Translations under genes and position numbers: made by a program
Source: Breznakia sp. PF5-3
Lineage (GTDB): Bacteria > Bacillota_I > Bacilli_A > Erysipelotrichales > Erysipelotrichaceae
DNA length: 23,231 nt
NCBI RefSeq assembly: GCF_029504745.1
Contig: NZ_JAQFIQ010000036.1
Span: 1 to 23,231, forward strand
Direction: 5' to 3'
Shown: positions 418 through 22,276 of the stretch, piece after piece
Layout: every line of letters begins with the position of its first letter
Position numbering within the stretch: position 1 is the stretch's first letter
Notes under the pieces: model-generated
Seen by the model: only the letters and a program-made list of their open reading frames with translations
Databases searched by the model: none
Told to the model about the DNA's origin: nothing

Positions 418-446
418 TTGAGAACTTTTCGCAACTTTCAAACGTC
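418..446 (+). promoter_or_regulatory. ECF-sigma-type promoter of the pilus operon: TTGAGAACTTTTC (-35 block), then CGTC (-10) 17 nt after GAAC
   Basis: GAAC at 422-425, a 17-nt gap, CGTC at 443-446. The 13-mer TTGAGAACTTTTC at 418-430 is identical to 8567-8579, with the same gap and the same CGTC. GAAC(TT)/CGTC is the classical ECF promoter architecture. Confidence 0.6.
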
Positions 447-558: not shown

Positions 559-3324
559 ATGAAGAAAAAACCAAGTAAATGGCTAGCGAAACTAACATTT
601 ATTCTGTTAGTCACGTTTGTTGTCATTGGACAACTTACCATGAACAAACTTGGAGCGGAAGATAATTCTTCAGATACAAAGACGGAAGATGTTATGAAGG
701 ATGTTGATGAAAAGATATCGTTTAGATCGATACAGCCATTAATGTTTGAAGATGTTCCTATGTATTTGGAGGTGAATGGTGTGGTACAAGAAATCACAAT
801 ATCTCCAGGTTTAGTATCGGACGCAGTAGAAAAATTGACACTAGAGGATGGTGTAAAATTTCAAAGAGCAGTACTTAGAAGGGAAGAAGGTGGAAACACC
901 ACGGAAGTAGATATTATTCGAGTGGGGAAGCTCGATGATGAAATCTATTATTCTCTAGCAAATCAACAGAATACAGGAATTTTATTAAAGGAGAATGAGA
1001 AATTAGTAATTGTGTGTAAGTCAGTATATGGCTTTACATACGAATATGATCCACTAAAGGGGAGTGTGAGTGGACCAGCGACAACATGGAAAGATGATGC
1101 AGTTGATATCCATGTAAAGGCTGAAAAATATCATCATATTAGTAAGATTGAATACATTGATAAAAACAATGTAGTTACTCAGGTATCAATAAGTGATAAT
1201 AAGGATATGACTTTTTCAATACCTGCTAGCGCTTTAAATGGTGATATGAGAGTAAAAGCAGAGTTTCTATCAGATGCACTTTATACAATTACAGAAGCAC
1301 CATCCGATGGAATCCAGCAAGGTGATTTATGTTTAAATGCAACCACAAGTGGTGAGTTCATTCCAAGTGTTACACCAGGGAGTACACAATCGTTTATGTT
1401 GTTTTCACAATCATGGACAGGTGGGGATGAATGGTATTTGAATATGTTAGCAATTAATGGCGAAAGTGTAGAAGTGCCATTGGTTTATGATATTGGGTCA
1501 ACTACCACAACAACACTTAAAAACGGTTCAATTGTAACCATAGAGTTAACAGGTAAAGGTGCGAGCTTGGCTTGGAAGGCTGGCGATAGCAGTAAAAAGC
1601 GGTGCCTTTATGTAATCACGGTTAGTGATATTCAAGAAGATATGGTTTTAACTGGAAACTTTAAGCTTGGTGGAAAGCGTGAAATGATTATTCGTGACAT
1701 GATTGGTATTTCGAAAGTGGGAGCTGCCAAACAAACAGTAGTAAGAAATGCATGGGTAAGTGGAACAGGTTATGATAATCCTGGGGATCACTTCTTCTAC
1801 AACTTACAACCGAATGATGGGGATACTGTTTATGATGCATACTACAAGGAAAGAGATAATGTAGGAGATCCAGCACAAAGTTATAATATTTATTTATATA
1901 CAGTGAAGCCAGGATACAATCCAAATACGGCAACTTATAGAGTTTATTATAATGGTGTGGAAGGAGATTATTCAAAGATTTTTCTAGCTTCTGGTAATGC
2001 TCAAGAGGTGGCAGCCAGTCTGGTAACAAATTATCGGCATTTTGATCCTTTTAAGAAGTTGGGAATCGCTGGTGGAGGAAAAATCAATGGTGATGGTTTC
2101 TTTGTCGAAGCAGCAAGAGAAGGATATACACATGTGTTTGCACTAAAAGAACATCCTGCAAATAATCAAGTTATTGATTTGAAAGCTACACCATATCAAT
2201 ATAATTTAATTTTTGATATGGATGGTGGTACCTATGCTAATACGGATTTAAATTTAGAAAAATACACATTGAATGGAACAACTGCAACGGAAAAGAAAAG
2301 TGATGGTTCACTTGTAACGTATACATTAGAACATGATACGGCAACTGCACATATGCCTGTTGTTGCACCTAAGAAAGAAGATTATTTCTTTAAGGGATGG
2401 AAGCTTTATAAAGATGGTGTAGCAGTATCAGATACGTTATATTCATTAGGTCAATCATTTGAAATTAATGAAGATACAATAGCTTATGCAAAAGGTGATT
2501 TAAAGTATGATGAAGGTCATACATTTACCTTCGTAGCACAATGGAGCAATGTATTAGATAGTACAGATACGGCAGAGTATGATGCATATTTTTATAAAGA
2601 AGATCCATTAAATGGAACTCATGTTCATGATGGTAAAAAGTATACTATCGTCAAAGAGATTAATGATTTTGGAACGGTTGGCGGAACAATCGTGGTATTA
2701 AATGATTTTCATCCAGGAAGTGATTATGAATTGAATAATGATTCAAAAGTTAAAATCGTAGGATTAAAGGATGAAACGGAAAGTGGTTATAAAGCACATA
2801 ATCAAATTATTTATTATTATGATTTAATACCAAATAAACTTACCATTGAAAAAACGGTAAGCGGATCTTATGCAAATAGATCAACAGCGTTTGAAATAGA
2901 AATTCAATTGATAAATCCAGATAAGACGAATTTTAATGGAACAATTGATTATACAGGGAAAACAACACATGCAAACAATCAAGCTTTAGCAAATGGAACA
3001 TTAACATTTATTGATGGAAAGGCATCAATTACTTTAAAGCATGGACAAAGCATTACTTTTGAAACTACTCCTGGAGTGGAATACAAAGTAATAGCAAAAC
3101 CCTCTACAAGGGGATATGAATTTGCATATACAGGAACAGGAACGTGTACAAATGAACACGCGACAGGAACGTTGAGTGATGATCATGAAGTGTTGATTAC
3201 GGGAACAAGAGATTATATCCCAGATATGGGAATTCAAGGTTCACCTTTGGTAGTAATATTCATGGGTGTTGTTGGACTTAGTGGCATCTTAGTTAAGATG
3301 ATATATCGTAAAAGAAAATGTTAG
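559..3324 (+). CDS. Large sortase-substrate surface adhesin, probable pilus tip subunit (Cpa-position gene)
   Basis: 921-codon ORF with an N-terminal signal peptide (MKKKPSKWLAKLTFILLVTFVVIG). Internal Listeria-Bacteroides-type repeat at nt 2194-2547 (YNLIFDMDGG...FFKGWKLY...FVAQW). C-terminal pilin/Cna-B-like domain (TLKHGQSITFETTPGVEYKV). C-terminal sorting signal IPDMG (3217-3231), then a hydrophobic stretch and an RKRKC tail. First gene of the pilus operon. Confidence 0.8.
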   Translation: MKKKPSKWLAKLTFILLVTFVVIGQLTMNKLGAEDNSSDTKTEDVMKDVDEKISFRSIQPLMFEDVPMYLEVNGVVQEITISPGLVSDAVEKLTLEDGVKFQRAVLRREEGGNTTEVDIIRVGKLDDEIYYSLANQQNTGILLKENEKLVIVCKSVYGFTYEYDPLKGSVSGPATTWKDDAVDIHVKAEKYHHISKIEYIDKNNVVTQVSISDNKDMTFSIPASALNGDMRVKAEFLSDALYTITEAPSDGIQQGDLCLNATTSGEFIPSVTPGSTQSFMLFSQSWTGGDEWYLNMLAINGESVEVPLVYDIGSTTTTTLKNGSIVTIELTGKGASLAWKAGDSSKKRCLYVITVSDIQEDMVLTGNFKLGGKREMIIRDMIGISKVGAAKQTVVRNAWVSGTGYDNPGDHFFYNLQPNDGDTVYDAYYKERDNVGDPAQSYNIYLYTVKPGYNPNTATYRVYYNGVEGDYSKIFLASGNAQEVAASLVTNYRHFDPFKKLGIAGGGKINGDGFFVEAAREGYTHVFALKEHPANNQVIDLKATPYQYNLIFDMDGGTYANTDLNLEKYTLNGTTATEKKSDGSLVTYTLEHDTATAHMPVVAPKKEDYFFKGWKLYKDGVAVSDTLYSLGQSFEINEDTIAYAKGDLKYDEGHTFTFVAQWSNVLDSTDTAEYDAYFYKEDPLNGTHVHDGKKYTIVKEINDFGTVGGTIVVLNDFHPGSDYELNNDSKVKIVGLKDETESGYKAHNQIIYYYDLIPNKLTIEKTVSGSYANRSTAFEIEIQLINPDKTNFNGTIDYTGKTTHANNQALANGTLTFIDGKASITLKHGQSITFETTPGVEYKVIAKPSTRGYEFAYTGTGTCTNEHATGTLSDDHEVLITGTRDYIPDMGIQGSPLVVIFMGVVGLSGILVKMIYRKRKC

Positions 3325-3860
3325 CAATTAAAGAAAAAATAGAAAAACAGCGAGATCCAAATAAACAACCTACAGTATTACAAGATATTCTATATTTGTT
3401 TATTAAGATTATTGCAATTATTGGTATTTTTATCTTATTATTTACGCTTATATTTGGGATTCATCGCAATGCAAATGCAGATATGGATCCTGCAATCAAA
3501 GATGGTGATCTGATACTCTATTATCGATTTGATAAAAATTATACAGCTAAGGATTTGGTTATGTATGAGTATGATGACACGACTTATGTATCAAGAGTTG
3601 TTGCTGTAGCAGGAGATCAAGTGGATATCAATGAAGAAGGACTTATCATAAATGGTTCACTTCAACAAGAATACGATATTTATACAGATACTTTACGATA
3701 TGCAACTGATGTTGAATTTCCTTTGGAAGTAAAAACAGGAGAAATCTTTGTATTAGGTGATAATCGAGAGCAAGCAAGCGATAGTAGAATTTTTGGCTCA
3801 ATCAAGATAAAAAATACCTTTGGAAAAGTATTTATGATTATACGAAGAAGAAATTTATAA
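3318..3860 (+). CDS. Signal peptidase I (S26) homologue lacking the Ser/Lys catalytic dyad; SipA/LepA-like pilus assembly factor
   Basis: N-terminal TM helix plus S26 boxes (DPAIKDGDLILY, VLGDNREQASDSRIFG). The nucleophile position is Asp (ANADMDPA versus GDSMxPT, codon 3480-3482). The general-base position is Ser (YVSRVVAVAGD versus YVKRVIGLPGD, codon 3591-3593). The ATG at 3318 overlaps the adhesin stop at 3322-3324. Confidence 0.8.
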   Translation: MLAIKEKIEKQRDPNKQPTVLQDILYLFIKIIAIIGIFILLFTLIFGIHRNANADMDPAIKDGDLILYYRFDKNYTAKDLVMYEYDDTTYVSRVVAVAGDQVDINEEGLIINGSLQQEYDIYTDTLRYATDVEFPLEVKTGEIFVLGDNREQASDSRIFGSIKIKNTFGKVFMIIRRRNL

Positions 3861-3879
3861 AAATATAATGGAGGACAAT

Positions 3880-5019
3880 ATGACAAAATTAAGAAAAGTA
3901 TTATCAATAATGATGGTAAGTATTATGACATTTACACTTATTGCAGTTTCAACAGTGAACACAGCTGCAGCAAGTGATAGCAAGGAAGTAACAATTACAA
4001 AGACTTTATCAATTGCTGATGGTATTACAACACCAAGTGCAAGTTTTACCTTTGCATTTGCAGCAGATACAGCATTTGATGCTGCTACACCTGCGATTGC
4101 AAACAAAAGTGTGAATTTCACAAGTGCAGATGTAAAAGCAGCAAATACAAATGCAATTGAAAAAGAGACAACGAATATTTTCGCTGGAGTAACATATCCA
4201 CATGCAGGAGAGTTCTTTTATACAATTAGTGAAACAGCTGGTACAACAGCAATTGAAAATGGAGAAATGGCATACGATACAAGCAAATATAGAATGCAAG
4301 TAATCGTTGCTGAAGACACAGATGGAACACTTTATATTAGCGCGGTAAATGTTGCTACATTAGATGATCAAAATAACGTTGATCAAAAAGTTGGTTCACA
4401 ACCAAGTGATGATATTACTGGTGGAGAAACATTTAAATTATTTACAAATACCTTTACAAAAAATGGTGGTGCTGGTGTTGATCCTGGTGAAGAATTAGAT
4501 TCAGCATTGACAATCACACATAAAGTAGCTGGAACAGCAGCAGATAAGTCAAAATATTTCACATATAATGTAACATTAACACAATCACCAACGGCAAGAG
4601 CTGCATTATCATATACAGGGAAAGTTGGTAGTACACCTTATACATTTACAACAGGTCAAGCAACAACAGTTACTTTAAAACATGGTGAAACAATTGATTT
4701 TGAGGTACTTCCAGCAGGTACAAAGGTTAGTGTAGTAGCAACTGGTGTGGATACATATACACCATCTTATGAATATATATCAAATGGTGGAGCAAAAGTT
4801 ACACAAGCGGGTTCAAAAGCAACAACTTTAACGGCTTCTGACATATTAGTTGGTGAATATGAGAATACAATTGTATTTACACACACTCGTAATACAGAAG
4901 ATATTCCACCAATGGGTATTGATATTAATAACTTACCATTTATATTGTTTATTTTAGTATCTATGGGAGGATTTGCTTTCTATATTGTTAATAAGAGACG
5001 CACAAGAACACAAGGTTAG
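3880..5019 (+). CDS. Backbone (major) pilin, FctA/T-antigen-like, sortase substrate
   Basis: GGAGGA at 3870-3875 favours the ATG at 3880 over the track start at 3868. Signal peptide MTKLRKVLSIMMVSIMTFTLIAVSTVNTAAA. Pilin-like motifs (YPHAGEFFYTISE, YRMQVIV, TLKHGETIDFEVLPAGTKV). C-terminal IPPMG (4903-4917), then a hydrophobic segment and an NKRRTRTQG tail. Confidence 0.8.
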   Translation: MTKLRKVLSIMMVSIMTFTLIAVSTVNTAAASDSKEVTITKTLSIADGITTPSASFTFAFAADTAFDAATPAIANKSVNFTSADVKAANTNAIEKETTNIFAGVTYPHAGEFFYTISETAGTTAIENGEMAYDTSKYRMQVIVAEDTDGTLYISAVNVATLDDQNNVDQKVGSQPSDDITGGETFKLFTNTFTKNGGAGVDPGEELDSALTITHKVAGTAADKSKYFTYNVTLTQSPTARAALSYTGKVGSTPYTFTTGQATTVTLKHGETIDFEVLPAGTKVSVVATGVDTYTPSYEYISNGGAKVTQAGSKATTLTASDILVGEYENTIVFTHTRNTEDIPPMGIDINNLPFILFILVSMGGFAFYIVNKRRTRTQG

Positions 5020-5032
5020 TTAGAATAAAAAA

Positions 5033-6010
5033 ATGAAACAAAGAAAACAACTTTTCGTTGAAAAGAAGCAATCAAAGCGTTTCATAGAAAGAAAGATCAT
5101 TAAAGGGATACATGGAATTATAAATGCAAGTATATTTGTAGTGTTACTTTTATTGTTTATATATGGTTGTTATGCTTTATGGGATTCAAAGCAAGTAACG
5201 AATGAAGCACAGGCTATACAATATGAAGCATATAAGCCAAGCGAAGAAGATAATTTATCGTTTCAGGAATTACAGACGATAAATGATGAAGTATTTGGGT
5301 GGCTCACTGTTTATGGTACAAGGATTGATTATCCTTTTGTCCAAGCTGAAGACAATAAAAAGTATGTAAATACGGATAGCAAAGGAAAATATTCCATATC
5401 TGGTAGTATTTTCTTAGATTCAAGAAATAAACATGATTTCTCAGATTTTAATTCGATATTATTTGGGCATCATATGGTTGAATCAGCAATGTTTGGTGAT
5501 TTGAGTAATTTCACTGATTCTATGTATTTTAAAGATCGAAAATATGGAAATATTTATTATAGTGGAAAAAATCATGGTATTGAATTCTTTGCATTTTTAG
5601 AAACAGATAGTTATGATAGTGTGATTTTTCAACCAGCAATTATAAACGATGATCAAAGACAAGCAGCATTAGAGTATATTGAGGTGAACGCGCTTCACTA
5701 TCGTGATCTTCATGTTACAACAAAAGATCACATTGTGATATTGAGCACTTGTTCATCTGCATTAACCAATGGTAGATACATTTTGGTGGGACGGATTACC
5801 GACTCAACATATCCAGATTCTTTCAATCGTGCAAAAGATAATTTGTCTGAAAGTAATGTTGGAATATGGAATACATTTCTTCGTTTACCACTATGGGCAA
5901 AATTGGTTTTAGGAATATTACTTTTATGTATCGTATGGATGATCATTGAAAAAAGTAGAAAGGGTAATGGTGATGAAAACAGTTCAGGGAATAAAAAAGA
6001 TACAGTGTAA
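5033..6010 (+). CDS. Class B-type sortase (pilus-polymerising), with an additional C-terminal TM segment
   Basis: N-terminal TM helix. SrtB-like N-terminal block INDEVFGWLTVYGTRIDYPFVQAEDNKKYV. Catalytic His in ILFGHHM, Cys in VILSTCSS, Arg in GRYILVGRI. The gene sits between two pilin genes. Hydrophobic segment LPLWAKLVLGILLLCIVWMII lies near the C-terminus (about 5879-5948). Confidence 0.85.
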   Translation: MKQRKQLFVEKKQSKRFIERKIIKGIHGIINASIFVVLLLLFIYGCYALWDSKQVTNEAQAIQYEAYKPSEEDNLSFQELQTINDEVFGWLTVYGTRIDYPFVQAEDNKKYVNTDSKGKYSISGSIFLDSRNKHDFSDFNSILFGHHMVESAMFGDLSNFTDSMYFKDRKYGNIYYSGKNHGIEFFAFLETDSYDSVIFQPAIINDDQRQAALEYIEVNALHYRDLHVTTKDHIVILSTCSSALTNGRYILVGRITDSTYPDSFNRAKDNLSESNVGIWNTFLRLPLWAKLVLGILLLCIVWMIIEKSRKGNGDENSSGNKKDTV

Positions 6011-6614
6011 ATTTATTGTTTTAGTCATAGTGTTTTTGATATTACCTTTTGGTATCAAGGTGAATGCAGCAGAAAACGGTGTGGATGTAAATCTTCCTGT
6101 TGAGCAAATTTTTGAGGTTGAAAATGAAAATACAATTTCAAATGAGTTTAAGTATTGTCTGTTTGCAGTGACGGACAATGCTCCAATGCCAAAAAATAGT
6201 GGTCAAAAAAATTATATATTTTATTTGAAGGGAAACCAGAGGATAGATATAGAAGCGATTAATTATACACAAAGTGGAGTGTATGAATATGATCTTTATC
6301 AAGTCATAGAGGAAGAAAAAGGGGGCTATGTCTATGATAAAACAGTATATCGAATTATTGTTCATATTTCATACGATAGTCATAATGATTTCATTAGTGA
6401 GGTGACAATCGCTAATGAGAAGGGCTTAAAAGTGGATCGTGCAACATTTACTAATCAAGTGAGAATTAAAAATGCTGCAAGTGTTGCTAATACCATGTCG
6501 AAGCCAAGTACAGGAGATAATACGGATATATCTGCATGGTATGTCTTAATGTCGATTTCAAGTGTATTTATCTTTTTTGGAATATGGGAAAAAAGAAAAA
6601 AAGCGAAGATATGA
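5973..6614 (+). CDS. Small basal/minor pilin (FctB-position gene) with a KPSTG sorting signal
   Basis: The SD-like GAAAGGG at 5958-5964 fits the ATG at 5973; the track start at 5946 is a TTG inside the sortase gene. Signal peptide ends ...FGIKVNA/AENG. Streptococcal-pilin-like motifs (FKYCLFAVTDNAPMPKN, GVYEYDLYQV, YDKTVYRIIVHI). C-terminal KPSTGD (6501-6515), then a hydrophobic stretch and a KRKKAKI tail. Confidence 0.75.
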   Translation: MKTVQGIKKIQCKFIVLVIVFLILPFGIKVNAAENGVDVNLPVEQIFEVENENTISNEFKYCLFAVTDNAPMPKNSGQKNYIFYLKGNQRIDIEAINYTQSGVYEYDLYQVIEEEKGGYVYDKTVYRIIVHISYDSHNDFISEVTIANEKGLKVDRATFTNQVRIKNAASVANTMSKPSTGDNTDISAWYVLMSISSVFIFFGIWEKRKKAKI

Positions 6615-6653
6615 TGTAATCTTTGAAATTATTTGAAGGAATATGAAACTTAG

Positions 6654-6738: not shown

Positions 6739-7051
6739 CAAAAACTAAGAAAAATAATGAAGTTTTTTGAAGGTTTCTTGTAATATGGGCTTTTTTATGC
6801 GATATTAATATTAAGAAATGTATATAAAAGCAGCATAATAAAAAAATATAATTAGTTAAATTGCATAATTGGCTTGGGAAGGCACACTATAATTATGCGG
6901 AGGGCAACTTTATCTTTTATATTTTTTTGTTATCTGCTGTTTCACTATTCTTGTTTTTTTAGGGTAGTGAGCGAGCTTTTTGATTTTAGTATCCCGTATG
7001 ACTAAGCCCTCTTATGAAACCATAATTTATAATTTATCAGGAGGGCGAAAT

Positions 7052-8365
7052 ATGAGTGGATTAAAAGCGGAAGAAATTCAAAAATTTATTGATGGTGATG
7101 ATACGGTATATCCTAAGATTTTTGCTGTGTATAAAAACAAAGTTAATTATATGGCCATCAAAATTCTTCGTAATGAAGCAGATTGTGAAGAAGTAGTGCA
7201 AAATACGTTTATTAAAGTATTCGAAAAAAGAAAAGATTTAAAAGATGCGAGTGCATTTAATACATGGATCTATCGAATTGCATACAATGCTAGTTTAGAT
7301 TTATACAGAAAGAATAAACGTAATTTAAGTAGTGATAATCATGATGTAGAAGAATTATCAGATTCTACAAGAGATACAAATTATGAAGTTAAAAAACATA
7401 CGATTTTGGAGTCTGTTCGTTTACAAATCGAAAGTTTACCAAAAGAGCTAAAAGAAATCTGTGATCTATGGTTTCTTTCTGGATGTAGCTTGGAAGAAAT
7501 TTCAGGTATTTTAAATGTGCCAAAAGGTACGGTTAAAAGCCGTTTACATCGTGCACGAAAACAACTACGTTCTGATTTGCAGAGGCAAGAGATAACCCCC
7601 AGGACGTTTTTAACGTTGTCGTTTCCAACCTTTGCATACCGGATATATGTTTCTATGATTGAAACACATAAGATTACAGCAGCATCAGGTGCTAGAATCA
7701 TGCGAAAGATTGAGGAAGCTACCAACGTCTCTGTAGATGCACTGGCATCTGCAATTGGAAATAATTCACTTGGAAGAGCAAGTATTGGAACTTTTGTATT
7801 ACTTTCATCTTTGCTACTTGGAGGTTTGGGAGCAGCAGGCGTGATGAATCCTACAGATACATCGGCAAAAAATATTACAGAAGTGATGTATCTAGATGAG
7901 ATAACGAATAAGAATTTACAAATTGGGATAATCTTTGATGGGACGATTAAGGCAAAGGATGTCAAAGTAACTCTTAATGGCAAGAAGATAAAGCTTGATG
8001 TTGTTGACAAAGATCGGTGTACTTTTATAGCTAGTGAAAATGGGCAGTATGTAATTAAATATAAGAATTCCAATGAAGAAATTGAAATAAAGAATATTGA
8101 TAAATCAGCACCTGTTTTATTAGGGATATCGGCAGATGATGGATTAATTAGTTTAAGTGCAGAAGATAATCATTCAGGGATTGACTTTGAAAAATCTTAT
8201 GTAGAAGCAGGCGATAAAAAAATATCATTAGTAAAGATTGATGAGAAGAATTTCTATTTAAGTGATGCATTAGAAAAAGATGCGACAGTGAGGTTTTATG
8301 ATATTGCAGGGAATTATGAAACTTACAAAATAAATGTTGAAAAAAAGATTAGTAGTACAGAATAG
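7052..8365 (+). CDS. ECF (group 4) sigma-70 factor fused to a TM helix and an extracytoplasmic Ig-like domain (single-chain sigma/anti-sigma-like sensor)
   Basis: GGAGGG at 7040-7045 sits 6 nt before the ATG at 7052; the track start at 6980 is a TTG with no SD. Region 2: EEVVQNTFIKVFEK...FNTWIYRIAYNASLDLYRKNKR. Region 4.2: LPKELKEICDLWFLSGCSLEEISGILNVPKGTVKSRLHRARKQLR. TM helix IGTFVLLSSLLLGGLGAAGVM (7784-7846). The C-terminal ~170 aa is beta-rich and ends with a RFYDIAGNYETYKINV motif typical of bacterial Ig-like domains. Confidence 0.85.
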   Translation: MSGLKAEEIQKFIDGDDTVYPKIFAVYKNKVNYMAIKILRNEADCEEVVQNTFIKVFEKRKDLKDASAFNTWIYRIAYNASLDLYRKNKRNLSSDNHDVEELSDSTRDTNYEVKKHTILESVRLQIESLPKELKEICDLWFLSGCSLEEISGILNVPKGTVKSRLHRARKQLRSDLQRQEITPRTFLTLSFPTFAYRIYVSMIETHKITAASGARIMRKIEEATNVSVDALASAIGNNSLGRASIGTFVLLSSLLLGGLGAAGVMNPTDTSAKNITEVMYLDEITNKNLQIGIIFDGTIKAKDVKVTLNGKKIKLDVVDKDRCTFIASENGQYVIKYKNSNEEIEIKNIDKSAPVLLGISADDGLISLSAEDNHSGIDFEKSYVEAGDKKISLVKIDEKNFYLSDALEKDATVRFYDIAGNYETYKINVEKKISSTE

Positions 8366-8566: not shown

Positions 8567-8595
8567 TTGAGAACTTTTCATAAAATGCGGTCGTC
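8567..8595 (+). promoter_or_regulatory. ECF-sigma-type promoter of the cohesin-dockerin operon (second copy of TTGAGAACTTTTC-N-CGTC)
   Basis: GAAC at 8571-8574, a 17-nt gap, CGTC at 8592-8595. The 13-mer at 8567-8579 is identical to 418-430. It lies downstream of the sigma-gene terminator and 26 nt upstream of the ATG at 8621. Confidence 0.6.
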
Positions 8596-8620
8596 CCTAA
8601 AATAGAGAGGAGAATTGGAT

Positions 8621-11600
8621 ATGAAAAAAGTTATATCTAGCTTACGTAAATTTGGTTTAGGTTCTTTAGCTTTTTGCATGGCACTTGGAATGGCATTAAC
8701 GAATATTAATGCAATTGATAGTAGTTCTGAGATAAGTGTAAAAAATGAAATTACTTATAACGATGATAAAGCGCAAGCGACAATTCATTTAGATGTGGCA
8801 CAAGAAAACGAAAATGTTGAAGTGAGTAAAGTGTTAGATCCAAATGAAAATGAAATGAGTCTTGATGACTTAAACTATGTAGTCGATAACAACGCTACTT
8901 ATACATTTAAAGTAGAGTATCGTATGGAGGATAGTCAAGACCTTCAGACATATGACTATGAAGTTATTGTAAATGACATTATAGACGCAACAAGCAAGGG
9001 CGAGATATCAAGAGGGGCGCTAAGAAGTGATATTAGCACAAGAGCTAATATTCTTGGAGACAATGAGTATATTGTGTATACTCTTGATGAATTAAAAACA
9101 TATGCTGAAATACCAAATGCAACAGTTTATTTTGGAGCGGATATTATTTGGGCATCTGGTACATCTTCAGATAAGAGTATTTCTATTGCAGAAGGTGTAA
9201 CGATTAATGGAACTGATCCTAGAACAGGTATTCGTCATAAATATAGATACGATACAGGTAGTTCAAAATGGGAAGGTTTCCAACTTCGTCAAGATGATAG
9301 AAAAGTAACATTCAGTGATATTGATATTGAGGGAACTGGAGGATATGGTGTAGCAAATGGACATGATTATCGAAGAGTAGTAGTAACATTCCATAATGTG
9401 AATTTCAAAGGTTCAAATGCTCAAGGATTCTATGCTCCAAAAGGTGGAAAACTGATTATGTCAGGAGATACTACTTGGACACAAAAAGGAACAAATCCAT
9501 ATTCAGAAGAGTTTGCAGAAATTACAAACTTAGAATTTGCAGAAGGTGCAAATGTGACAATTGATCATGAATCAAGATTAGGAAAGAGTTACAATTCATT
9601 CTTCTATGCTTCTTACAATGATGATAAATATAAACATATTGACATTACAGTAGGAAAGAACGCAAAGGCAACAATCAAATCAAACAAAGGAATTTTTGCT
9701 GCAAATGCAAATGGTGGAACACACTCAATTACAGTAAATGAAGGTGCAAATTTTACGATTGATCAAACAAACAATACAGACAATGAATGTCAGTTAGCAA
9801 AACCTGGTAACAATTCACCAATTTACATTAGAGTAAAAGATGAAGGTACATTCAATTTCTATTCCAACACAAAAGCAGGGTATGGAATGTTGAATACACA
9901 ACAAGAAAGTGCAATCAATGTTGATGCAGGTGGATCAATCCGTGTTATTAACTATGGTAAAGGTGGAGCTGTCGGTGCAAACAGTACAGCAACATATATC
10001 AACCTTGATACACCTAAATATGCAGAATTTACAAGTCAATCAACATTTCCATTAGAAATGATGACAAGGGGTGGCGGAAATGTAACAGCAAGCAATGCTG
10101 TTGTATTAGCTAGTGCAGATAACAAAGCATACTATAACCTAGGTTATGTACATAACATTGCAATGAACCATAAAAGTAGTAGTAACACTTTAGTTGGTGT
10201 TAATCCTACAACTTGGACTGGTGCATATACATATACAGCAATGCAAAATGGACTTAAGAGTTTAGTGTTTAGAGGGGTTTCGATTGAAATTCAAGAACCT
10301 GTAAAAGATACTGATTCAATTGTGAATGTGAAAACAGAACCAAATGCGAAAGTAACAATTACAGGGACATATGAAGATGGAACACCTTGTGAATTAACAA
10401 AAGTAGCAGATGAAAACGGGGATGTTCAATTTGATTTAGGAGATAAAACACTAAAAGGTGGATCTGAATTATCTTCTAAAGCAACTGTAAATAACGATAT
10501 TGAACTTATTGGAAATACAGTAATTGTAGAAAAAACTCCAATTGAAGAAAAAGTAACGCTTACTGCAGAAGATGCATTCCTTCACCGTGATGATGCGAAA
10601 GCATTAGCTAATGTTGATGGATTAGCATACTACAACAAAGCAAAAGCAGTATTATGGAATAACACAGAAGATACACCTAGTGCATCATGTGCAGACTACG
10701 ACAAGATTAAAGCAGGTGTAATCGGTGTTTACGATGTGACATATTCTTATACGTTACATGAAGAAACAATTACAACAACAGCTAAAATTATTGTTCACAA
10801 TGGAGTACCAACACCAGATGGTGAATATGTATTGACAGCTTCAGATGGATTGATTTCTGAGAGTGAAGCGAAAGCTTTATCTGGAAAAGAGTATAGTTCA
10901 CTTCGTTCATACAACAAAGCTACAGCTTTCAATAAGAAAGGTGAGCAATTTGAGGTAAGTACATTTGTACAACCAGGAGACTGGATGAGTATTACAGATG
11001 GAAAAGTTGGATCTTATAGAGTTTTCTACTCATTTGGTGAAGGCGATAACTTAGTTCAAAAAATAGTTAAGATAACAGTATATGAAGATGGTGGTATCTT
11101 ATCACCAGATGAAGATTTTGTTCTTCATGCATTTGATGCTTGTATCTTAAAAAGTGAAGCAGAAGGATTAAATGTAAAAGAAGATTTAATTCCATATAAC
11201 CGAGGAAAAGTAACATTGGCAAGTGGAGATATTTTAGCGCCTAATGTGAAAGCAGATGATTTCGCAACGATTAAAAGTGGAACACTTGGAAACTATGATG
11301 TGACTTATAGTTATGGAAGTGAAAATAATGCAGTTAGCAAAGACGTAATCGTTAGTGTTAAGAAGAATGGTGGAATTGTTTCACCAGAAAGAGATTTTGT
11401 TCTTTATGCGGAAGATGGAGAAATCTTACAAACCGAAGCAGAAGGTATGGAATCAGAAACAGACGTATTAGATATAGTGAATGGATATGTTGAATTTGTA
11501 GATGGAACTACAGTAGCACCAGATATTTCAGTGGAAGACTTCGATAAAGTACAAGCTGGAAAAGATGGTGATTATAAAGTTACTGTTAGCTACGATGGTG

Positions 11601-11881
11601 TTGAAAAAGAAGTAGAATTGACACTAATTCAAGAATATGAAGCAAGGTATTTATTTGATTATAATAATGATGGAAAAGTAAATAGTGTAGATTATGTATA
11701 TTTCAATGATTTATTTAATAATCCAGATACTGTAACAGAACAAGATTTATTACTTTCTGATGCAAATGGAGATGGATATATAGATATGGTTGATTTAGGT
11801 ATGGTTCACTATTATTTAAACAATCCACAAGCAAAATTAAAAGAAATTAGAATACCAATTGATTTACTTAAAAAGAAATAA
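8621..11881 (+). CDS. Secreted dockerin-bearing adhesin-like protein: N-terminal Ig-like region, beta-helix-like central region, 4 Ig-like repeats, C-terminal type-I dockerin
   Basis: GAGAGGAG at 8604-8611 favours the ATG at 8621; the track start at 8615 is a TTG only 3 nt after the SD. Signal peptide ...GMALTNINA. Recurrent beta-helix-like rungs: EGANVTIDHES, GKNAKATIKSNKG, NEGANFTIDQTNN, DEGTFNFYSN, DAGGSIRVINYG. Repeats and dockerin are listed as separate features. Confidence 0.85.
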   Translation: MKKVISSLRKFGLGSLAFCMALGMALTNINAIDSSSEISVKNEITYNDDKAQATIHLDVAQENENVEVSKVLDPNENEMSLDDLNYVVDNNATYTFKVEYRMEDSQDLQTYDYEVIVNDIIDATSKGEISRGALRSDISTRANILGDNEYIVYTLDELKTYAEIPNATVYFGADIIWASGTSSDKSISIAEGVTINGTDPRTGIRHKYRYDTGSSKWEGFQLRQDDRKVTFSDIDIEGTGGYGVANGHDYRRVVVTFHNVNFKGSNAQGFYAPKGGKLIMSGDTTWTQKGTNPYSEEFAEITNLEFAEGANVTIDHESRLGKSYNSFFYASYNDDKYKHIDITVGKNAKATIKSNKGIFAANANGGTHSITVNEGANFTIDQTNNTDNECQLAKPGNNSPIYIRVKDEGTFNFYSNTKAGYGMLNTQQESAINVDAGGSIRVINYGKGGAVGANSTATYINLDTPKYAEFTSQSTFPLEMMTRGGGNVTASNAVVLASADNKAYYNLGYVHNIAMNHKSSSNTLVGVNPTTWTGAYTYTAMQNGLKSLVFRGVSIEIQEPVKDTDSIVNVKTEPNAKVTITGTYEDGTPCELTKVADENGDVQFDLGDKTLKGGSELSSKATVNNDIELIGNTVIVEKTPIEEKVTLTAEDAFLHRDDAKALANVDGLAYYNKAKAVLWNNTEDTPSASCADYDKIKAGVIGVYDVTYSYTLHEETITTTAKIIVHNGVPTPDGEYVLTASDGLISESEAKALSGKEYSSLRSYNKATAFNKKGEQFEVSTFVQPGDWMSITDGKVGSYRVFYSFGEGDNLVQKIVKITVYEDGGILSPDEDFVLHAFDACILKSEAEGLNVKEDLIPYNRGKVTLASGDILAPNVKADDFATIKSGTLGNYDVTYSYGSENNAVSKDVIVSVKKNGGIVSPERDFVLYAEDGEILQTEAEGMESETDVLDIVNGYVEFVDGTTVAPDISVEDFDKVQAGKDGDYKVTVSYDGVEKEVELTLIQEYEARYLFDYNNDGKVNSVDYVYFNDLFNNPDTVTEQDLLLSDANGDGYIDMVDLGMVHYYLNNPQAKLKEIRIPIDLLKKK
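10553..11644 (+). repeat. Four tandem ~91-aa Ig-like protein repeats (coding, diverged at DNA level)
   Basis: Each unit runs [LV]xAxDxxIxxxxAKAL...YN.A.V...G......V...D[FW]..I..G..G.Y.VTYSYG.....K.V.[IV].V. The signatures are GVIGVYDVTYSY, GKVGSYRVFYSF, GTLGNYDVTYSY and GKDGDYKVTVSY. Confidence 0.8.
11651..11824 (+). other. Type-I dockerin module (two Ca-binding loop/helix segments)
   Basis: LFDYNNDGKVNSVDYVYFNDLF ... LLSDANGDGYIDMVDLGMVHYYLNN. Both halves fit the DxNxDGxhxxxD dockerin/EF-hand-like loop followed by a helix. Confidence 0.8.
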
Positions 11882-11924
11882 TGAAGAAAGGAGATTGTTT
11901 ATTTTATAAATAAACAAACACGAT

Positions 11925-13451
11925 ATGAAATTAAAATTTATTAAAAAAGGATTTAAGAAAATCGCTGCTCTAGGGTTAGTGATGGCTGTGTTGATTCCTA
12001 TTGTTGGGAATGTTACTTCTTCAATAACAGCAGCTCAAACACCTTCATTTGACGTAGAGCCTACGATTACAATTACAAGAAATGATGGTGGTGGACTATA
12101 TTATGGAACACACGAACAAGAAGAAAGTTATGTAGATAATGGAAAACAATATTACCGTGATGGAGATATTATTCAAGTAGAAGTATCTTTACCGCAAGGA
12201 CATGGGTCATCAGCAGTATTTAATGTTGTGAAATATGATAATGAAAAATTACAATTATTATCAACAATGGATCATATTAAATATTCAATGGCTTCAAATT
12301 ATATGAATGCAGGATGGGATCCAGCAGTTGGATACTATGAAGGAGAGACAAACCAAATCTCAACAATATCAACAGGACCTGCAAATGAATTTGAAGGTGG
12401 AAATATTGCTGTAATGTATTTTAAAGTTAAACCTGGAGTTGAAAGTACAAAAGGAACAGATATTACATTCGAATTTCCAAACTTTAATAGTGCAACAAGA
12501 ATTGAAGGGGAAAGAATGCCTGTTAATAACCATAAAGGTTTTATAGCAGGAGATGAATCAACATATGAATATCACCCTGAATCAATTACAATTCAAGCGA
12601 AAACACCTTCTGCTCCTGAACCAGCAGTAAAACCTACATTGGAATTAACTGCTAATACAGTAACAGTTTATGAAGGAGATATTGTAAACCCTAAAGATTA
12701 CATAAAAAAAGCAAGCTGTACAAGTGATGCAAATGTTAATAAAGATAGTGTTGTAATTACTGGTGGAACTGATGAAACAGGAAAACATCAACCTGTAGCA
12801 GGAAACTATGAATTTACATATAAAGTAACAAATGCATCAAATGAAACAACAGAAAAAACATTGAAATTAAATGTTTTAGAAAGAACATACACTGTAAAAT
12901 CAGTAGAAACAGCTGGTCAAGGATTGAATATTCCTGCTGGAACAACAGATGCTGAATTCGAAGAAATTCTTGAAGGTCTTTTAGGTAAAGAATTTGTTGT
13001 TAATGTAGAAGGAAATGATGGATCTAAGTTTAAAGTTAAAGGAACTGTTTTCGGTGGAGAAACTGATGAATACGAAATTGATGGAAATGATGTTTTAACA
13101 ACACAAACATTTAATATGAAATTAGATTTATTATTGCCAGCAGTAGTATATAACGAAAATGGTGAAAGAGAAATCGTTTCATTACTTGGAAGAGCTGGTT
13201 TTGCTAGTTTAATCGATGATGGAACAGCAGAAGCAGTAATTAAAATTAGAGTTGGTGCAGGTTCAACAACACCAGGAAATGATTCTACAGGATCAAATAA
13301 TGGATCTACAGGTCATGCATCAATTGCTGCAGGTAATTCTGGAGCAGGAACAGATACAGGAGATACTACAAACACAGCAGGATTTATGACATTATTGGCA
13401 TTATCTGGACTTGTATTGGTAGGAACTAAATTAAGAAAAACATATCGCTAA
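11925..13451 (+). CDS. Cell-surface anchoring cohesin protein: signal peptide, cohesin-like module, Ig-like domain(s), Ser/Thr/Gly-rich linker, C-terminal sorting-signal-like tail
   Basis: Signal peptide ...NVTSSITAAQ. Cohesin-like module at 12039-12599. Ig-like domain ending AGNYEFTYKVTNASNETTEKTLKLNV. C-terminus GTDTGDTTNTAGFMTLLALSGLVLVGTKLRKTYR, i.e. xxDTGD, a hydrophobic stretch and a basic tail. No good SD before the ATG at 11925. Confidence 0.8.
   Translation: MKLKFIKKGFKKIAALGLVMAVLIPIVGNVTSSITAAQTPSFDVEPTITITRNDGGGLYYGTHEQEESYVDNGKQYYRDGDIIQVEVSLPQGHGSSAVFNVVKYDNEKLQLLSTMDHIKYSMASNYMNAGWDPAVGYYEGETNQISTISTGPANEFEGGNIAVMYFKVKPGVESTKGTDITFEFPNFNSATRIEGERMPVNNHKGFIAGDESTYEYHPESITIQAKTPSAPEPAVKPTLELTANTVTVYEGDIVNPKDYIKKASCTSDANVNKDSVVITGGTDETGKHQPVAGNYEFTYKVTNASNETTEKTLKLNVLERTYTVKSVETAGQGLNIPAGTTDAEFEEILEGLLGKEFVVNVEGNDGSKFKVKGTVFGGETDEYEIDGNDVLTTQTFNMKLDLLLPAVVYNENGEREIVSLLGRAGFASLIDDGTAEAVIKIRVGAGSTTPGNDSTGSNNGSTGHASIAAGNSGAGTDTGDTTNTAGFMTLLALSGLVLVGTKLRKTYR
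12039..12599 (+). other. Cohesin-like module A
   Basis: GDIIQVEVSLPQGHGSSAVFNVVKYDNEKLQLLS and GGNIAVMYFKVKPGVESTKGTDITFEFP match the cohesin pattern (GDxVxVxVxL ... F.h.YDp..Lehhs ... G.hA.h.FKV...G...I.F). Paralogous to modules B and C. Confidence 0.65.
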
Positions 13452-13486
13452 TTTATAGCAGAAAGAAAAGCATTTGAAAGTGGTGA

Positions 13487-13513
13487 GAAAAGGAAGTCTG
13501 GACACTCCTTTTC
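13487..13513 (+). other. Intercistronic stem-loop (GAAAAGGA / TCCTTTTC), possibly a partial terminator or mRNA-processing/stability element
   Basis: A perfect 8-bp stem (13487-13494 with 13506-13513) and an 11-nt loop, followed by CATTGCTTTTCG, which is only a weak U-tract. Located between the stop at 13451 and the ATG at 13539. Confidence 0.35.
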
Positions 13514-13538
13514 CATTGCTTTTCGAGAAAGGACATTT

Positions 13539-16500
13539 ATGAAAAAGATTATCATGAAAAGTCTTGTTCTTCTGCTAGCAATTACAACTATATTACCAAT
13601 GAGTGGTATTACGGTTGCAGCAGCGGAAGGAATAAAGACAGATATTACCATTACACGTAATAACGGAAATGGTGCTTATGGGGAACATACGCATCCATCA
13701 TACGTTGAAGATGGTGTTCAATATTATCGTGAAGGCGATATTATTGAATTGGATATTGCATTGCCTGCAAATCATGGGGCATCAGAACTTTGGAACGTAG
13801 TAAAGTATGATCCAACACAAGTAGCAGTTGTATCAACAAAGCTAAATGTTCAAAGTACGCTTGGTGATAATTATCGGGCAAAGGGTTATGAAGCTAATAC
13901 AAATTTAGCTTATCAAGGAACACAGGGATTAATATCAACTACGATTGTGCGTACATTCTATGGAAATGATGCACCTGATTTTGATACAGCTGGAGGAACA
14001 ACAGCTAAAATTTATTTTAGAGTTCTTAATGATGTGGAAACAGTAGAAGGAACAGAAATTACATTTGAATTTCCAATTTTCCAAGCAATCAGTAGAACTA
14101 GTATTACCGATTATGAATTTATACACGAAGGATTTGATGCGAATCGTTATGCGGAAACAAGAACTGTAAGTTTAGAATCACAAACGATTATTGCGAAAAA
14201 ACCAACGGTTGATTTTATTGCAGAGGATGGATTCATTACACGTAGTCAAGCACAAGCAATTGGTGAAAGTGCAGATTTAAAACCTTATAACTTTGTTAGT
14301 GCTACAGCAAGTGATGGACAAGAAGTGGCAGTAAAAGCAACAACAAGTAGTTTAGATACAATTAAGGCAGGAACATTGGGAACATATGATGTTACTTATT
14401 CATATACATTTGAAGGAACACCAATGTCAAAAACAGTAAAACTTACAGTTGTTGAAAACGACGTAGTTATTTCTGAAGATAGAACGGTAGCTTTAAGAGC
14501 GGATAGTGTTATCTTGACACAAACACAAGCAAAAGCCTTATCTGCAAAAGAAGCATTGCTTCCATTAAATAATGTATTTGTATACTTATCAAATGGAACA
14601 ACAGCAACAGCAAATGTTGATGTACCAGAGTTTGATAAGATCAAAGCAGGTACAATTGGTACATATAATGCAACATATTCTTATGGAATAGATAAAAGTT
14701 TTGCATCAAAAACAGTAAATGTAGTTGTTGTAAAAGATGGATCTGACATAAGCGATAATAAAAAAGTTTCCTTATATGCAAAAGATGGTTTTATTAGAGA
14801 GTCACAAGCAAGAGCATTGTCACTACGTTCAGCCGTAGCACCATATAACAGTGCTGTAGTAACATTAGCGGATGGATCAACTACAACTCCAACAACAGAA
14901 ATTGAAGCAAATGCTTGGAATAAGATGAGAGCTGGAACATTAGGAACATACAATGTATATTATCACCATGGAACAGGTGATAGTGAAGTTGAAATGAATG
15001 TGAAAGCTACGGTTATTTCAGATGATGCAGTTGTTTCAAAAGATGAAACAGTTAGTTTAGTAGCGGATGATGTTGATATGTATCAAGAAGATGCAAAAGC
15101 GCTTGGTAAAGTGGATGATTTAATTGATTACGCAAATGCTGAAGTAACACTATCAGATGGTACAAAAGTAGCACCTAGTGTAGAAACAGATGATTTTGAT
15201 AGTATCAAAGCTGGAATCATTGGTGAATATGAAGTTACATTTAAATATGGTGAAGGTGATAGTGCTGTTGAAAAGACAGTAACAATTACAATAAAAGAAG
15301 ATTTAAGACATTTAATCTCAGCTACAGATAACTTTATTACTCAAAGTAAAGCACAAGAATTAACTTCAAAAGAAAGTTTACGTGCAGTGAATTCAGTTAG
15401 TGTAACAGACTATAATGGTGTTGACCAAGATGCAGTTGTAACAACAAGTGACTTTAATACAATTAAAGCAGGAACTTTGGGAAGCTACATAATTACTTAT
15501 AGTTATGGTACAGGAACAAAAGAAGTTTCAGTTACTGCAAAAGTAAATGTTATTCCTGATGATTCTATTGTTGATGGTGATGTAAGTTTATATGCAAGAG
15601 ATAAAGCGATTACAGTAACACAAGCAAAAGCATTGAATACGAAAGAAGACCTAATTCCATATAATGAAGCATCTGTAAGATTGCTTGATGGAACTACACC
15701 AGCACCAAGTGTTGCAGTTTCTGTAGGCGATTGGTCATTGATAAACAGTGGTAAAGAAGGTTCTTATAATGTTACTTATAGTTATGGAACGGTTTCAAAG
15801 ACAGTAAAGATTACAGTTGTAAAAGATGGCTCTGAAGAGTCTGAAGACAAAACAGCAACATTATATGCGAAAAATGCTTTTATAACCGTATCAGATGCAA
15901 AAAAAGTTAGCAATAAGACGCAATTGATTCCATACAACAAAGCAGAAGTAGTATTGGCGAGTGGTGATAAAAAAGTGCCAGATGTGACGATATCAAATGA
16001 TGATTTATTAGCAATTAGTGCAGGAACAATTGGTGGCTATAACGTACTTTATTCATACGGTAGTGGAAAACAACAAGTACAAAAAATGGTAAAAATAGTT
16101 GTAATTGCAGATGATCCGATAATTTCAGAAGATGAAAGTGTTGCGTTGAGTGCAAATGATGAAGAAATTGATGATGCAGCTGCTAAGAAATTAACAAGTA
16201 GAAACGAATTGATTGATATTAGTAATGCAGTGGTTACTTTCGATGATGGAACAACACAAGCACCTACATTAGCGGTTGCTGATGAAGATTGGGATGCAAT
16301 ACGTTCAGGGAAATTAGGTACATATTCATTAACATATTCTTATGGTACATTAGGAAATAAAGATTATGTTACAAAAACAGTAAGTTTGACAGTAGTGAAA
16401 CTTACAGAAGACCGTACTTTATTTGATTACAACAGAGATAATATAATTAATAGTGTGGATTACATGTATTTCCATGAGTTATTCAATAATCCTCAATTTG

Positions 16501-16634
16501 TGACACCAACAGATGTATTGTTGTCTGATGCAAATGGTGATGGATATATTGATATGGTTGACTTAGGAATGATTCATTATTATGTGAACAATCCAAAAGT
16601 AAAACCTCCAACTATTAAAGTACCAATAGGTTAA
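13539..16634 (+). CDS. Scaffoldin/adaptor-like protein: N-terminal cohesin-like module, 8 Ig-like repeats, C-terminal type-I dockerin
   Basis: SD GAGAAAGGA lies before the ATG. Signal peptide ...GITVAAAEG. Module, repeat and dockerin evidence is listed under separate features. Confidence 0.85.
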   Translation: MKKIIMKSLVLLLAITTILPMSGITVAAAEGIKTDITITRNNGNGAYGEHTHPSYVEDGVQYYREGDIIELDIALPANHGASELWNVVKYDPTQVAVVSTKLNVQSTLGDNYRAKGYEANTNLAYQGTQGLISTTIVRTFYGNDAPDFDTAGGTTAKIYFRVLNDVETVEGTEITFEFPIFQAISRTSITDYEFIHEGFDANRYAETRTVSLESQTIIAKKPTVDFIAEDGFITRSQAQAIGESADLKPYNFVSATASDGQEVAVKATTSSLDTIKAGTLGTYDVTYSYTFEGTPMSKTVKLTVVENDVVISEDRTVALRADSVILTQTQAKALSAKEALLPLNNVFVYLSNGTTATANVDVPEFDKIKAGTIGTYNATYSYGIDKSFASKTVNVVVVKDGSDISDNKKVSLYAKDGFIRESQARALSLRSAVAPYNSAVVTLADGSTTTPTTEIEANAWNKMRAGTLGTYNVYYHHGTGDSEVEMNVKATVISDDAVVSKDETVSLVADDVDMYQEDAKALGKVDDLIDYANAEVTLSDGTKVAPSVETDDFDSIKAGIIGEYEVTFKYGEGDSAVEKTVTITIKEDLRHLISATDNFITQSKAQELTSKESLRAVNSVSVTDYNGVDQDAVVTTSDFNTIKAGTLGSYIITYSYGTGTKEVSVTAKVNVIPDDSIVDGDVSLYARDKAITVTQAKALNTKEDLIPYNEASVRLLDGTTPAPSVAVSVGDWSLINSGKEGSYNVTYSYGTVSKTVKITVVKDGSEESEDKTATLYAKNAFITVSDAKKVSNKTQLIPYNKAEVVLASGDKKVPDVTISNDDLLAISAGTIGGYNVLYSYGSGKQQVQKMVKIVVIADDPIISEDESVALSANDEEIDDAAAKKLTSRNELIDISNAVVTFDDGTTQAPTLAVADEDWDAIRSGKLGTYSLTYSYGTLGNKDYVTKTVSLTVVKLTEDRTLFDYNRDNIINSVDYMYFHELFNNPQFVTPTDVLLSDANGDGYIDMVDLGMIHYYVNNPKVKPPTIKVPIG
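13626..14207 (+). other. Cohesin-like module B
   Basis: GDIIELDIALPANHGASELWNVVKYDPTQVAVVS and GGTTAKIYFRVLNDVETVEGTEITFEFP. Collinear with modules A and C, including the shared YV[DE][DN]G.QYYR[DE]GDII. Confidence 0.65.
14208..16400 (+). repeat. Eight tandem ~91-aa Ig-like protein repeats, same family as 10553-11644
   Basis: Signatures GTLGTYDVTYSY, GTIGTYNATYSY, GTLGTYNVYYHH, GIIGEYEVTFKY, GTLGSYIITYSY, GKEGSYNVTYSY, GTIGGYNVLYSY and GKLGTYSLTYSY. Each is preceded by [VL]xLxAxDxxI..xxAKAL and followed by K.V.[IV].V[VI].D. Confidence 0.85.
16419..16592 (+). other. Type-I dockerin module
   Basis: LFDYNRDNIINSVDYMYFHELF ... LLSDANGDGYIDMVDLGMIHYYVNN. The second segment matches the dockerin at 11651-11824 at 24 of 26 residues (my own count). 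Confidence 0.8.
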
Positions 16635-16661
16635 AACATTTTTAAAGAAAGGGCGATTCAT

Positions 16662-22265: not shown

Positions 22266-22276
22266 AAGGAGATATT

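Follow-up and report, generated by a model that had tools for sequence, protein, structure and literature searches.

How a sigma factor that is covalently attached to the membrane could come to act on its promoters is the question raised by a gene of Breznakia sp. PF5-3, which lies on a stretch of 23,231 nt of DNA (contig NZ_JAQFIQ010000036.1, positions 1 to 23,231; hereafter, the window). A first-pass annotation, made from the sequence alone, had described the open reading frame (ORF) at 7052..8365 as an extracytoplasmic function (ECF) sigma factor fused to a transmembrane (TM) helix and an external immunoglobulin (Ig)-like domain. Here, we confirmed that the encoded protein (hereafter, the fusion protein) comprises four parts, namely an ECF sigma factor (sigma2 and sigma4), a ~60-aa helical linker, one TM helix, and two tandem Ig-like domains, and we propose that it is probably a single-chain sigma/anti-sigma-type transmembrane signaler released by proteolysis. 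Architecture, topology, family, and promoters were established computationally; the control of activity is what we infer. All features of the window that are given with coordinates below lie on the (+) strand.

A complete ECF sigma factor continues in frame into a membrane-spanning protein

The ORF extends from ATG 7052 to 8365 as a single uninterrupted frame of 437 aa plus stop, and the passage from the sigma domain through a ~60-aa linker and a TM segment to an external domain is continuous, as first described. A Shine-Dalgarno sequence (AGGAGG, 7039..7044), read directly from the sequence, precedes the ATG by 7 nt. The Met equivalent to ATG 7052 is the start in all close homologues (7/7), and the in-frame TTG at 6980 is therefore not the start of the gene. 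The product is 100% identical to a protein of Breznakia sp. PF5-3 annotated at NCBI as "RNA polymerase sigma factor" (P0001).

Residues 1–180 are a complete ECF (group 4) sigma factor, as all of the defining features that we tested for are present. Specifically, sigma region 2 (aa 26–90; 7127..7321) matches Pfam PF04542 Sigma70_r2 with 47 bits (E = 2.2e-12), and sigma region 4.2 (aa 120–173; 7409..7570) matches PF08281 Sigma70_r4_2 over aa 120–172 with 44.7 bits (E = 1e-11) and also PF04545. The matches to PF04542, PF08281, and PF07638 all exceed their cutoffs, and the protein scores 93.7 bits on the NCBIfam model TIGR02937 sigma70-ECF (cutoff 42.9), which bears out the earlier call of complete regions 2 and 4.2; sigma regions beyond 2 and 4 (e.g., region 3 or 1.1) were not found with Pfam or NCBIfam. 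The nearest solved relatives of the sigma domain by Foldseek and phmmer are SigW, sigmaE, and AlgU, with SigH matched too. However, on the NCBIfam SigW equivalog, the fusion protein reaches only 113 bits, well short of the cutoff of 209, which rules out SigW orthology. Residues 185–437 are not covered by any Pfam model.

The fusion is shared by a lineage-specific family

We searched for homologues with a word index and, separately, with an exhaustive hidden Markov model (HMM) search using the C-terminal 260 aa. The word-index search returned six full-length homologues with 24–63% identity, one of which is a second copy in Breznakia sp. PF5-3 itself, and the HMM search returned 433 proteins at E ≤ 1e-3. 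The family set used throughout consists of the 85 proteins of 400–470 aa among the best 150 of these 433 profile matches, each representing a cluster at 50% identity. In every member, the C-terminal profile match starts near aa 180; 85/85 have a sigma domain at the N terminus together with a hydrophobic peak (median position, aa 241), and none of the 85 carries any Pfam annotation other than the sigma regions.

These data bear directly on whether the fusion is genuine. An assembly or frameshift artifact that joins separate sigma and anti-sigma genes, which the first-pass annotation had raised as the alternative to its own reading, is vanishingly improbable. We found nothing in its favor, and it is refuted by at least 85 independent 50%-identity clusters, drawn from isolates, metagenome-assembled genomes (MAGs), and raw-read assemblies, that share the continuous architecture. 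The same architecture also recurs in several paralogues inside single genomes, with at least five in B. pachnodae DSM 16784.

All members that carry an organism name come from Breznakia or from Coprobacillaceae MAGs, and the fusion family is lineage specific and multi-paralogue in Breznakia/Coprobacillaceae. All of its members are annotated just as "RNA polymerase sigma factor." In the literature searched, which included ECF reviews and classification texts (PMC7826278, PMC8999054, PMC8103513; the supplementary group list and the ECF Hub were outside this scope), a Bacillota group with a single TM helix and a tandem-Ig extension is not mentioned.

One TM helix places two Ig-like domains outside the cell

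The only strong Kyte-Doolittle peak in the fusion protein (1.87 over 19 residues) corresponds to aa 243–266 (7778..7849), a single Gly/Ser-rich TM helix that matches the one originally placed at 7784–7846. Across the 85 members, the net charge of the 15 residues on each side of this helix averages +1.36 N-terminally and −1.22 C-terminally, and the N side is the more positive one in 78/85. This positive-inside bias, together with sigma-less relatives in which a Lys-rich signal anchor precedes the same Ig domains, leads us to predict an N-in/C-out topology. We also considered a second TM helix at aa 185–206; with it, the Ig domains would be cytoplasmic. Its hydropathy reaches only 1.08 (family median, 1.04; ≥1.6 in just 2/85 members), and it was rejected for this reason and because both the charge bias and the stand-alone signal-anchor relatives give C-out. 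Helix-destabilizing residues (G/P/N/S) in the TM helix average 3.8 per 19 aa in the family and number 6 in the fusion protein, a composition compatible with cleavage by a site-2 protease.

The AlphaFold2 (AF2) model, built on the 85-sequence alignment, has a mean predicted local distance difference test score (pLDDT) of 82.3 and a predicted template modeling score (pTM) of 0.59, and it replaced a 7-sequence model with a pLDDT of 60. It contains sigma2 and sigma4, three linker helices, a low-confidence membrane segment, and two beta-sandwich domains. Ig-like domain 1 (aa 275–347; 7874..8092) is modeled with pLDDT ~90–97 and carries a conserved ENGxY motif, of which N330, G331, and Y333 are near-invariant across the family. 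Ig-like domain 2 (aa 348–430; 8093..8341) begins with NIDKxxP, ends with LYDxxGN, and has a pLDDT above 90. The beta-rich C-terminal part of ~170 aa noted at first is thus resolved into two sandwiches, and its "DIAGN" motif turns out to be the family-conserved LYDxxGN strand. By Foldseek, the C-terminal ~190 aa match tandem Ig/IPT/Fn3-like modules (MET IPT, Dscam Ig1-2, and CbhA Fn3); the fold is that of two Ig-like beta-sandwiches, and the ectodomain has no Pfam carbohydrate-binding module match.

The ectodomain module is also found in other proteins. It recurs as 5–31 tandem copies in giant surface proteins of 900–3200 aa (P0121–P0126 and others), some of which also carry SLH, Cadherin-like, DUF7743, or BiPBP_C domains. 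In addition, a sigma-less 204-aa protein (L008 7854–8468, Thomasclavelia sp. MAG) consists of a signal anchor and the same two Ig domains, and P0130 and P0136 resemble it in having a Lys-rich signal anchor, then the two Ig domains, and no sigma factor. The L008 gene is the last of a homologous dockerin-protein operon.

This recurrence suggests one possible cue. Instead of sensing the environment, the fusion protein could act as a feedback sensor of its own regulon, its Ig domains binding co-regulated pili, dockerin proteins, or unassembled subunits and reporting their state of assembly or secretion. Such a role would fit an ectodomain made of the stalk module of giant surface proteins, the pairing of each paralogue with a different surface-protein cassette, and the position of the L008 protein at the end of its operon. 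On the other hand, recognition of a homologous module in neighboring proteins was rejected, as the ectodomain profile matched no other ORF of the window. We consider this role quite unlikely; it concerns the identity of the cue and is compatible with either release of the sigma factor or its action in the tethered state.

A conserved helical linker is the best candidate for restraint of the sigma factor

The cytoplasmic helical linker (aa 181–240; 7592..7771) is a candidate intramolecular anti-sigma element by its AF2 helices and its conservation. Its motif order is a conserved G-x-x-P-x-x-Y-x-S...P...F, a second helix, and a variable spacer, and the three modeled helices span aa 191–205, 210–224, and 229–238 (pLDDT 67–86). 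Conservation is 0.31 over aa 181–206 vs 0.18 over aa 207–240, and the distal half is poorly conserved and often rich in Ser/Thr/Ala/Gly. The distance from sigma4 to the membrane varies from 37 to 88 aa across the family, with a median of 62 aa. The conserved helical segment directly after sigma4 is the best candidate for holding the sigma factor inactive in the model, and a linker this short, with no recognized family, could define a new minimal anti-sigma element. A Pfam match to SEA_Gpr126 (PF25307) over aa 185–232 lies below cutoff (E = 0.022; 15 bits vs a cutoff of 29) and was dismissed because this segment is cytoplasmic and helical.

The modeled sigma domain points in the same direction. 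Foldseek aligned it with CnrH/CnrY at a template modeling (TM) score of 0.76 (root-mean-square deviation [rmsd], 5.3 Å), with EcfG/NepR at 0.72 (4.0 Å), and with SigW/RsiW at 0.71 (8.7 Å). In comparison, the open forms of ECF sigma factors bound to RNA polymerase (RNAP) gave only 0.33–0.44 (21–27 Å). Sigma2 and sigma4 are therefore modeled in the compact arrangement of anti-sigma-bound ECF sigma factors, which we regard as suggestive of restraint.

Paired promoters suggest that the sigma factor acts on neighboring surface-protein operons

The window contains two copies of an ECF-type promoter, TTGAGAACTTTTC-N12-13-CGTC, one at 418..446, 5′ of a sortase-pilus operon, and the other at 8567..8595, ~25 nt 5′ of the gene for a 1088-aa dockerin protein. 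The 13-mer TTGAGAACTTTTC with CGTC at a fixed distance occurs exactly twice in the 23-kb window, and the looser pattern GAACTT-N14-16-CGTC has 2 matches vs 0.04 expected by chance. The same promoter is found in L011, where P0002, an orthologue with 63% identity, is encoded, both 5′ of the sigma gene and 5′ of the orthologous downstream gene. There, promoter 8567 is conserved at the orthologous position 5534, and promoter 418 aligns with the L011 promoters. Both candidates proposed in the first-pass annotation have thus proved to be identical ECF-type promoters with conserved counterparts.

Similarly, paralogous loci contain promoter pairs, one copy 5′ of the sigma gene and one 5′ of the neighboring surface-protein gene (L001, L007, L006, L013, and L003), and the promoter differs between paralogues. 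The variant is GGAACCTTTT...CGTC in L001 (copies at 9948–9971 and 16529–16552), L007 (7109 and 11973), and L005, where the contig covers just the sigma-upstream copy. It is GGAACCTTTT...TTCGCC in L006, (G/A)AAACC-N16-GCGTCTTACT in L013, and GTTCAAACT-N17-ATATCTAAC in L003. Promoters that covary with their sigma paralogue in this way would be expected if the ECF sigma factors are functional and insulated from one another, and the family appears, from these comparisons, to switch on neighboring pilus and surface-protein genes. Within single genomes, the sigma factors and promoters of the paralogue loci look like a naturally occurring collection of apparently insulated pairs.

The putative targets in the window form two operons, and we attribute their regulation to the fusion sigma factor from the promoters that precede them. 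The first, preceded by promoter 418, is a sortase-dependent pilus locus (559..6614) whose products are a tip protein, an S26/SipA-like factor that is catalytically dead, backbone and minor pilins of the FctA type, and a sortase, with Pfam matches to DUF7601, Peptidase_S26, FctA, and Sortase. The second, preceded by promoter 8567, encodes secreted surface proteins of 1088, 508, 1031, and 406 aa (8615..17882), of which two contain Dockerin_1 and Big_3 and three contain an unannotated N-terminal module of ~195 aa; its gene order is kept in the paralogous loci L001, L006, and L007. Neither gene flanking the fusion gene, i.e., the minor pilin (5946–6614) and the 1088-aa dockerin protein (8615–11881), has an anti-sigma signature, in agreement with the earlier statement that no anti-sigma gene is adjacent.

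In 11/11 loci examined, the fusion gene adjoins genes for secreted or cell-surface proteins or a sortase, and in 10/11, a protein of at least 500 aa is encoded within one or two genes downstream. Pilus genes adjoin it in the window and in L011, Dockerin/Big_3 proteins in the window and the L001 group, and leucine-rich repeat (LRR) proteins in L010 and L013. The neighbors further include a sortase in L014, an adhesin in L009 that exceeds 2600 aa and contains SdrD_B and CLIPPER domains, and a pectate-lyase-like giant in L013 with a length of 5054 aa.

This constant adjacency can also be read in another way, namely that the sigma factor works while tethered and is never released, recruiting core RNAP to adjacent promoters near the membrane, with the ectodomain modulating its activity via conformation or oligomerization. 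The long linker, whose weakly conserved, Ser/Thr/Ala/Gly-rich distal half resembles a flexible tether, would suit such a mode of action, and so would the absence of a recognizable anti-sigma domain. Membrane-anchored regulators that act on promoters held near the membrane do exist, among them ToxR, CadC, and TcpP. A specific version, in which the tethered sigma factor is a ToxR-like one-component system that physically couples the transcription of genes for giant adhesins, pili, and dockerin proteins to secretion, with the Ig ectodomain as the gate, is in our estimate very unlikely. To our knowledge, action by a sigma factor in the membrane-bound state is without precedent. Moreover, adjacent targets are also typical of ordinary ECF sigma factors, and the compact arrangement of sigma2 and sigma4 predicted by AF2 is incompatible with binding to core RNAP. 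Finally, IutY, the only single-chain case studied experimentally, is proteolytically released (PMC5411451). Taken together, we consider action in the tethered state unlikely.

Comparison with known fused and two-protein systems

A sigma factor covalently joined to a membrane-spanning regulatory extension has precedents, a point on which the first-pass annotation needs correction. IutY of P. putida is a fused sigma/anti-sigma protein released by Prc and RseP (PMC5411451) and is a hybrid within ECF243 (PMC8999054), and the actinobacterial groups ECF48/52/53, e.g., SCO4117 of Streptomyces coelicolor, combine an ECF sigma factor with a long C-terminal extension (PMC5826349, PMC8999054). Like IutY, the fusion protein carries a cytoplasmic N-terminal ECF sigma factor, one TM segment, and an extracytoplasmic C-terminal regulatory part in one chain, with no separate anti-sigma gene. 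However, the regulatory part of IutY is a FecR-type periplasmic anti-sigma domain instead of two Ig-like domains, and no FecR Pfam match was found in the fusion protein or in any of the family members (0/85). Furthermore, IutY receives its signal from a TonB-dependent outer-membrane receptor in Gram-negative iron uptake, whereas the Breznakia protein belongs to a monoderm member of the Bacillota and is encoded beside pilus and adhesin genes, in a window with no TonB-dependent receptor gene.

The ECF48/52/53 extensions likewise contain TM helices and an extracytoplasmic domain, and these groups are predicted to be activated by proteolysis and autoregulated. ECF52, in contrast to the tandem-Ig ectodomain in Breznakia, has a ZAS-like zinc finger, a Pro-rich region, and a carbohydrate-binding domain, and it is described as exclusive to Actinobacteria. 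By this comparison, the fusion protein resembles IutY-type and ECF52-type fused sigma factors but belongs to neither.

The parallel drawn earlier with the SigI/RsgI systems of Clostridium thermocellum and Bacillus (PMC10556640, PMC10575876) holds for the logic. In both cases, there are several sensor-plus-sigma paralogues per genome, extracellular sensors, and dedicated promoters for surface complexes, each Breznakia paralogue standing beside a surface cassette with dockerin proteins downstream as the presumed targets. It fails for every defining feature of SigI/RsgI, as SigI is not an ECF sigma factor and RsgI, a protein in its own right, combines an anti-sigmaI domain at its N terminus with a SEAL domain capable of autoproteolysis; the fusion protein has no RsgI_N match and no SEA/SEAL match above threshold. 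The canonical two-protein form of regulated intramembrane proteolysis (RIP) is represented by SigW/RsiW and SigV/RsiV of Bacillus subtilis (PMC4183432). SigW is, with sigmaE and AlgU, closest to the fusion protein in the sequence and fold of its sigma domain, and the overall logic, in which a membrane-spanning inhibitor is removed by site-1 and then site-2 cleavage, is similar. In these systems, however, sigma and anti-sigma are encoded by separate genes, with RsiW containing a ZAS domain and RsiV a domain that binds lysozyme.

A model of proteolytic release and the points that weigh against it

In the resting state that we propose, the sigma factor would be tethered to the membrane, and the conserved helices after sigma4 would hold it compact and inactive as a fused minimal anti-sigma element. 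Judging from their promoters, relatives of the fusion protein are autoregulated, which implies that the sigma factor must be restrained after its synthesis. A cue at the Ig ectodomain (a surface, a ligand, or the state of the co-regulated surface structures) would expose the protein to stepwise proteolysis. After an initial trimming of the ectodomain, cleavage inside the Gly/Ser-rich TM helix by a site-2 protease would free a sigma fragment of ~22–28 kDa. The freed fragment would guide RNAP to the identical promoters 418 and 8567, an output for which there is comparative sequence support, and would turn on the sortase-pilus and dockerin surface-protein operons. More widely, each paralogue would act on the adhesin or surface-protein cassette that it adjoins through its own promoter variant. 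The experimental precedent of IutY, which is released by sequential cleavage (PMC5411451), and the predicted parallel of ECF48/52/53 (PMC8999054) both support release by proteolysis.

Several observations weigh against this model. Proteolysis, release, and the signal are themselves steps that we infer. None of the 85 linkers has a Pfam match, the ZAS-like zinc motif HxxxCxxC occurs in 0/85 (only 1/85 has at least two Cys, and the linker of the fusion protein has none), and homology to a known anti-sigma domain was rejected after a profile search of PDB sequences gave only summed TALE-repeat artifacts. AF2 may default to compact ECF sigma factors even when no partner is present, and for this reason, together with the lack of known anti-sigma homology or a zinc motif in the linker, we treat the compact model as suggestive and as nothing stronger. 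The promoters at 418 and 8567 are assigned to the fusion sigma factor, and not to the paralogue P0004, whose promoters read GGAACC-N16-CGTC, or another ECF sigma factor, by adjacency and by covariation across loci. In addition, an autoregulatory promoter 5′ of the sigma gene, which the relatives have, was not found in the window, where the corresponding segment is missing in the alignment with L011.

The proteases raise a similar difficulty. No site-2 protease gene is present in the window, and in the S26 homologue within its pilus operon (3318–3860), the positions of the catalytic Ser and Lys are occupied by Asp (ADMDP) and Ser (SRVVAV), respectively. Because both catalytic residues are replaced, this protein cannot be a dedicated site-1 protease and was rejected as such; judging from these motifs, it probably serves pilus assembly as an inactive SipA/LepA-like factor. 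A type I signal peptidase (S26) gene also lies directly 5′ of the fusion gene in L001, L006, L007, and L012 and is divergent in L014, and the L001 copy, the one checked, retains the catalytic motifs SMEP and KRV. The S26 copies 5′ of the paralogues in L001, L006, L007, and L012 could still serve as site-1 proteases.

Other features of the window

The pilus operon and the sigma gene are separated by a very stable double hairpin (6640–6750), with a minimum free energy of −41.9 kcal/mol and z = −9.0 vs shuffled sequences. It has no Rfam match and no U-tract, and an Rfam search of the whole window gave nothing usable; the hairpin may be a terminator, an insulator, or a processing site. In the pilus operon, the C-termini of the 921-, 383-, and 222-aa proteins carry IPDMG, IPPMG, and KPSTG, respectively, in place of a canonical LPXTG, and then a hydrophobic stretch and a basic tail, which suggests an unusual specificity of the sortase encoded at 5033–6010.

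In the second operon, the mechanical start call of the 1088-aa gene is TTG 8615, and ATG 8621 (MKKVISS...), with GAGAGGAG 5′ of it, is more likely to be the real one. Type I dockerins are present in the products of 8615–11881 and 13539–16634. The ~195-aa N-terminal module is shared, with 36–48% identity, by the proteins encoded at 11925–13451, 13539–16634, and 16662–17882 and, given the neighboring dockerins, is therefore a candidate dockerin partner, i.e., a putative divergent cohesin. A cohesin identity for the module in the 508-, 1031-, and 406-aa proteins received no support from Pfam or PDB sequences. Finally, 3′ of the surface-protein cluster (19004–22963) are genes for a pyruvate formate-lyase (PFL)-like glycyl-radical enzyme, a radical-SAM activase, and a transaldolase/FSA-family protein. 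They look like ordinary metabolism unrelated to the fusion sigma factor, and PFL-like and radical-SAM genes are also found near the B. blatticola homologue (L003).

Implications

If the proposed model holds, a sensor, an anchor, an inhibitor, and a sigma factor would be combined in one 437-aa chain, a compact and self-contained signaling device, in a Gram-positive lineage, and single-chain sigma/anti-sigma signaling would extend beyond Pseudomonas iron uptake and Actinobacteria. Single genomes hold many duplicates, each with a promoter variant and an adhesin, pilus, or dockerin cassette to itself, and these would offer synthetic biology a natural set of possibly orthogonal sensor-sigma-promoter triplets. 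The family also makes the function of a tethered sigma factor directly testable, and it may provide a route to how insect-gut Erysipelotrichia choose the surface structures that they display.

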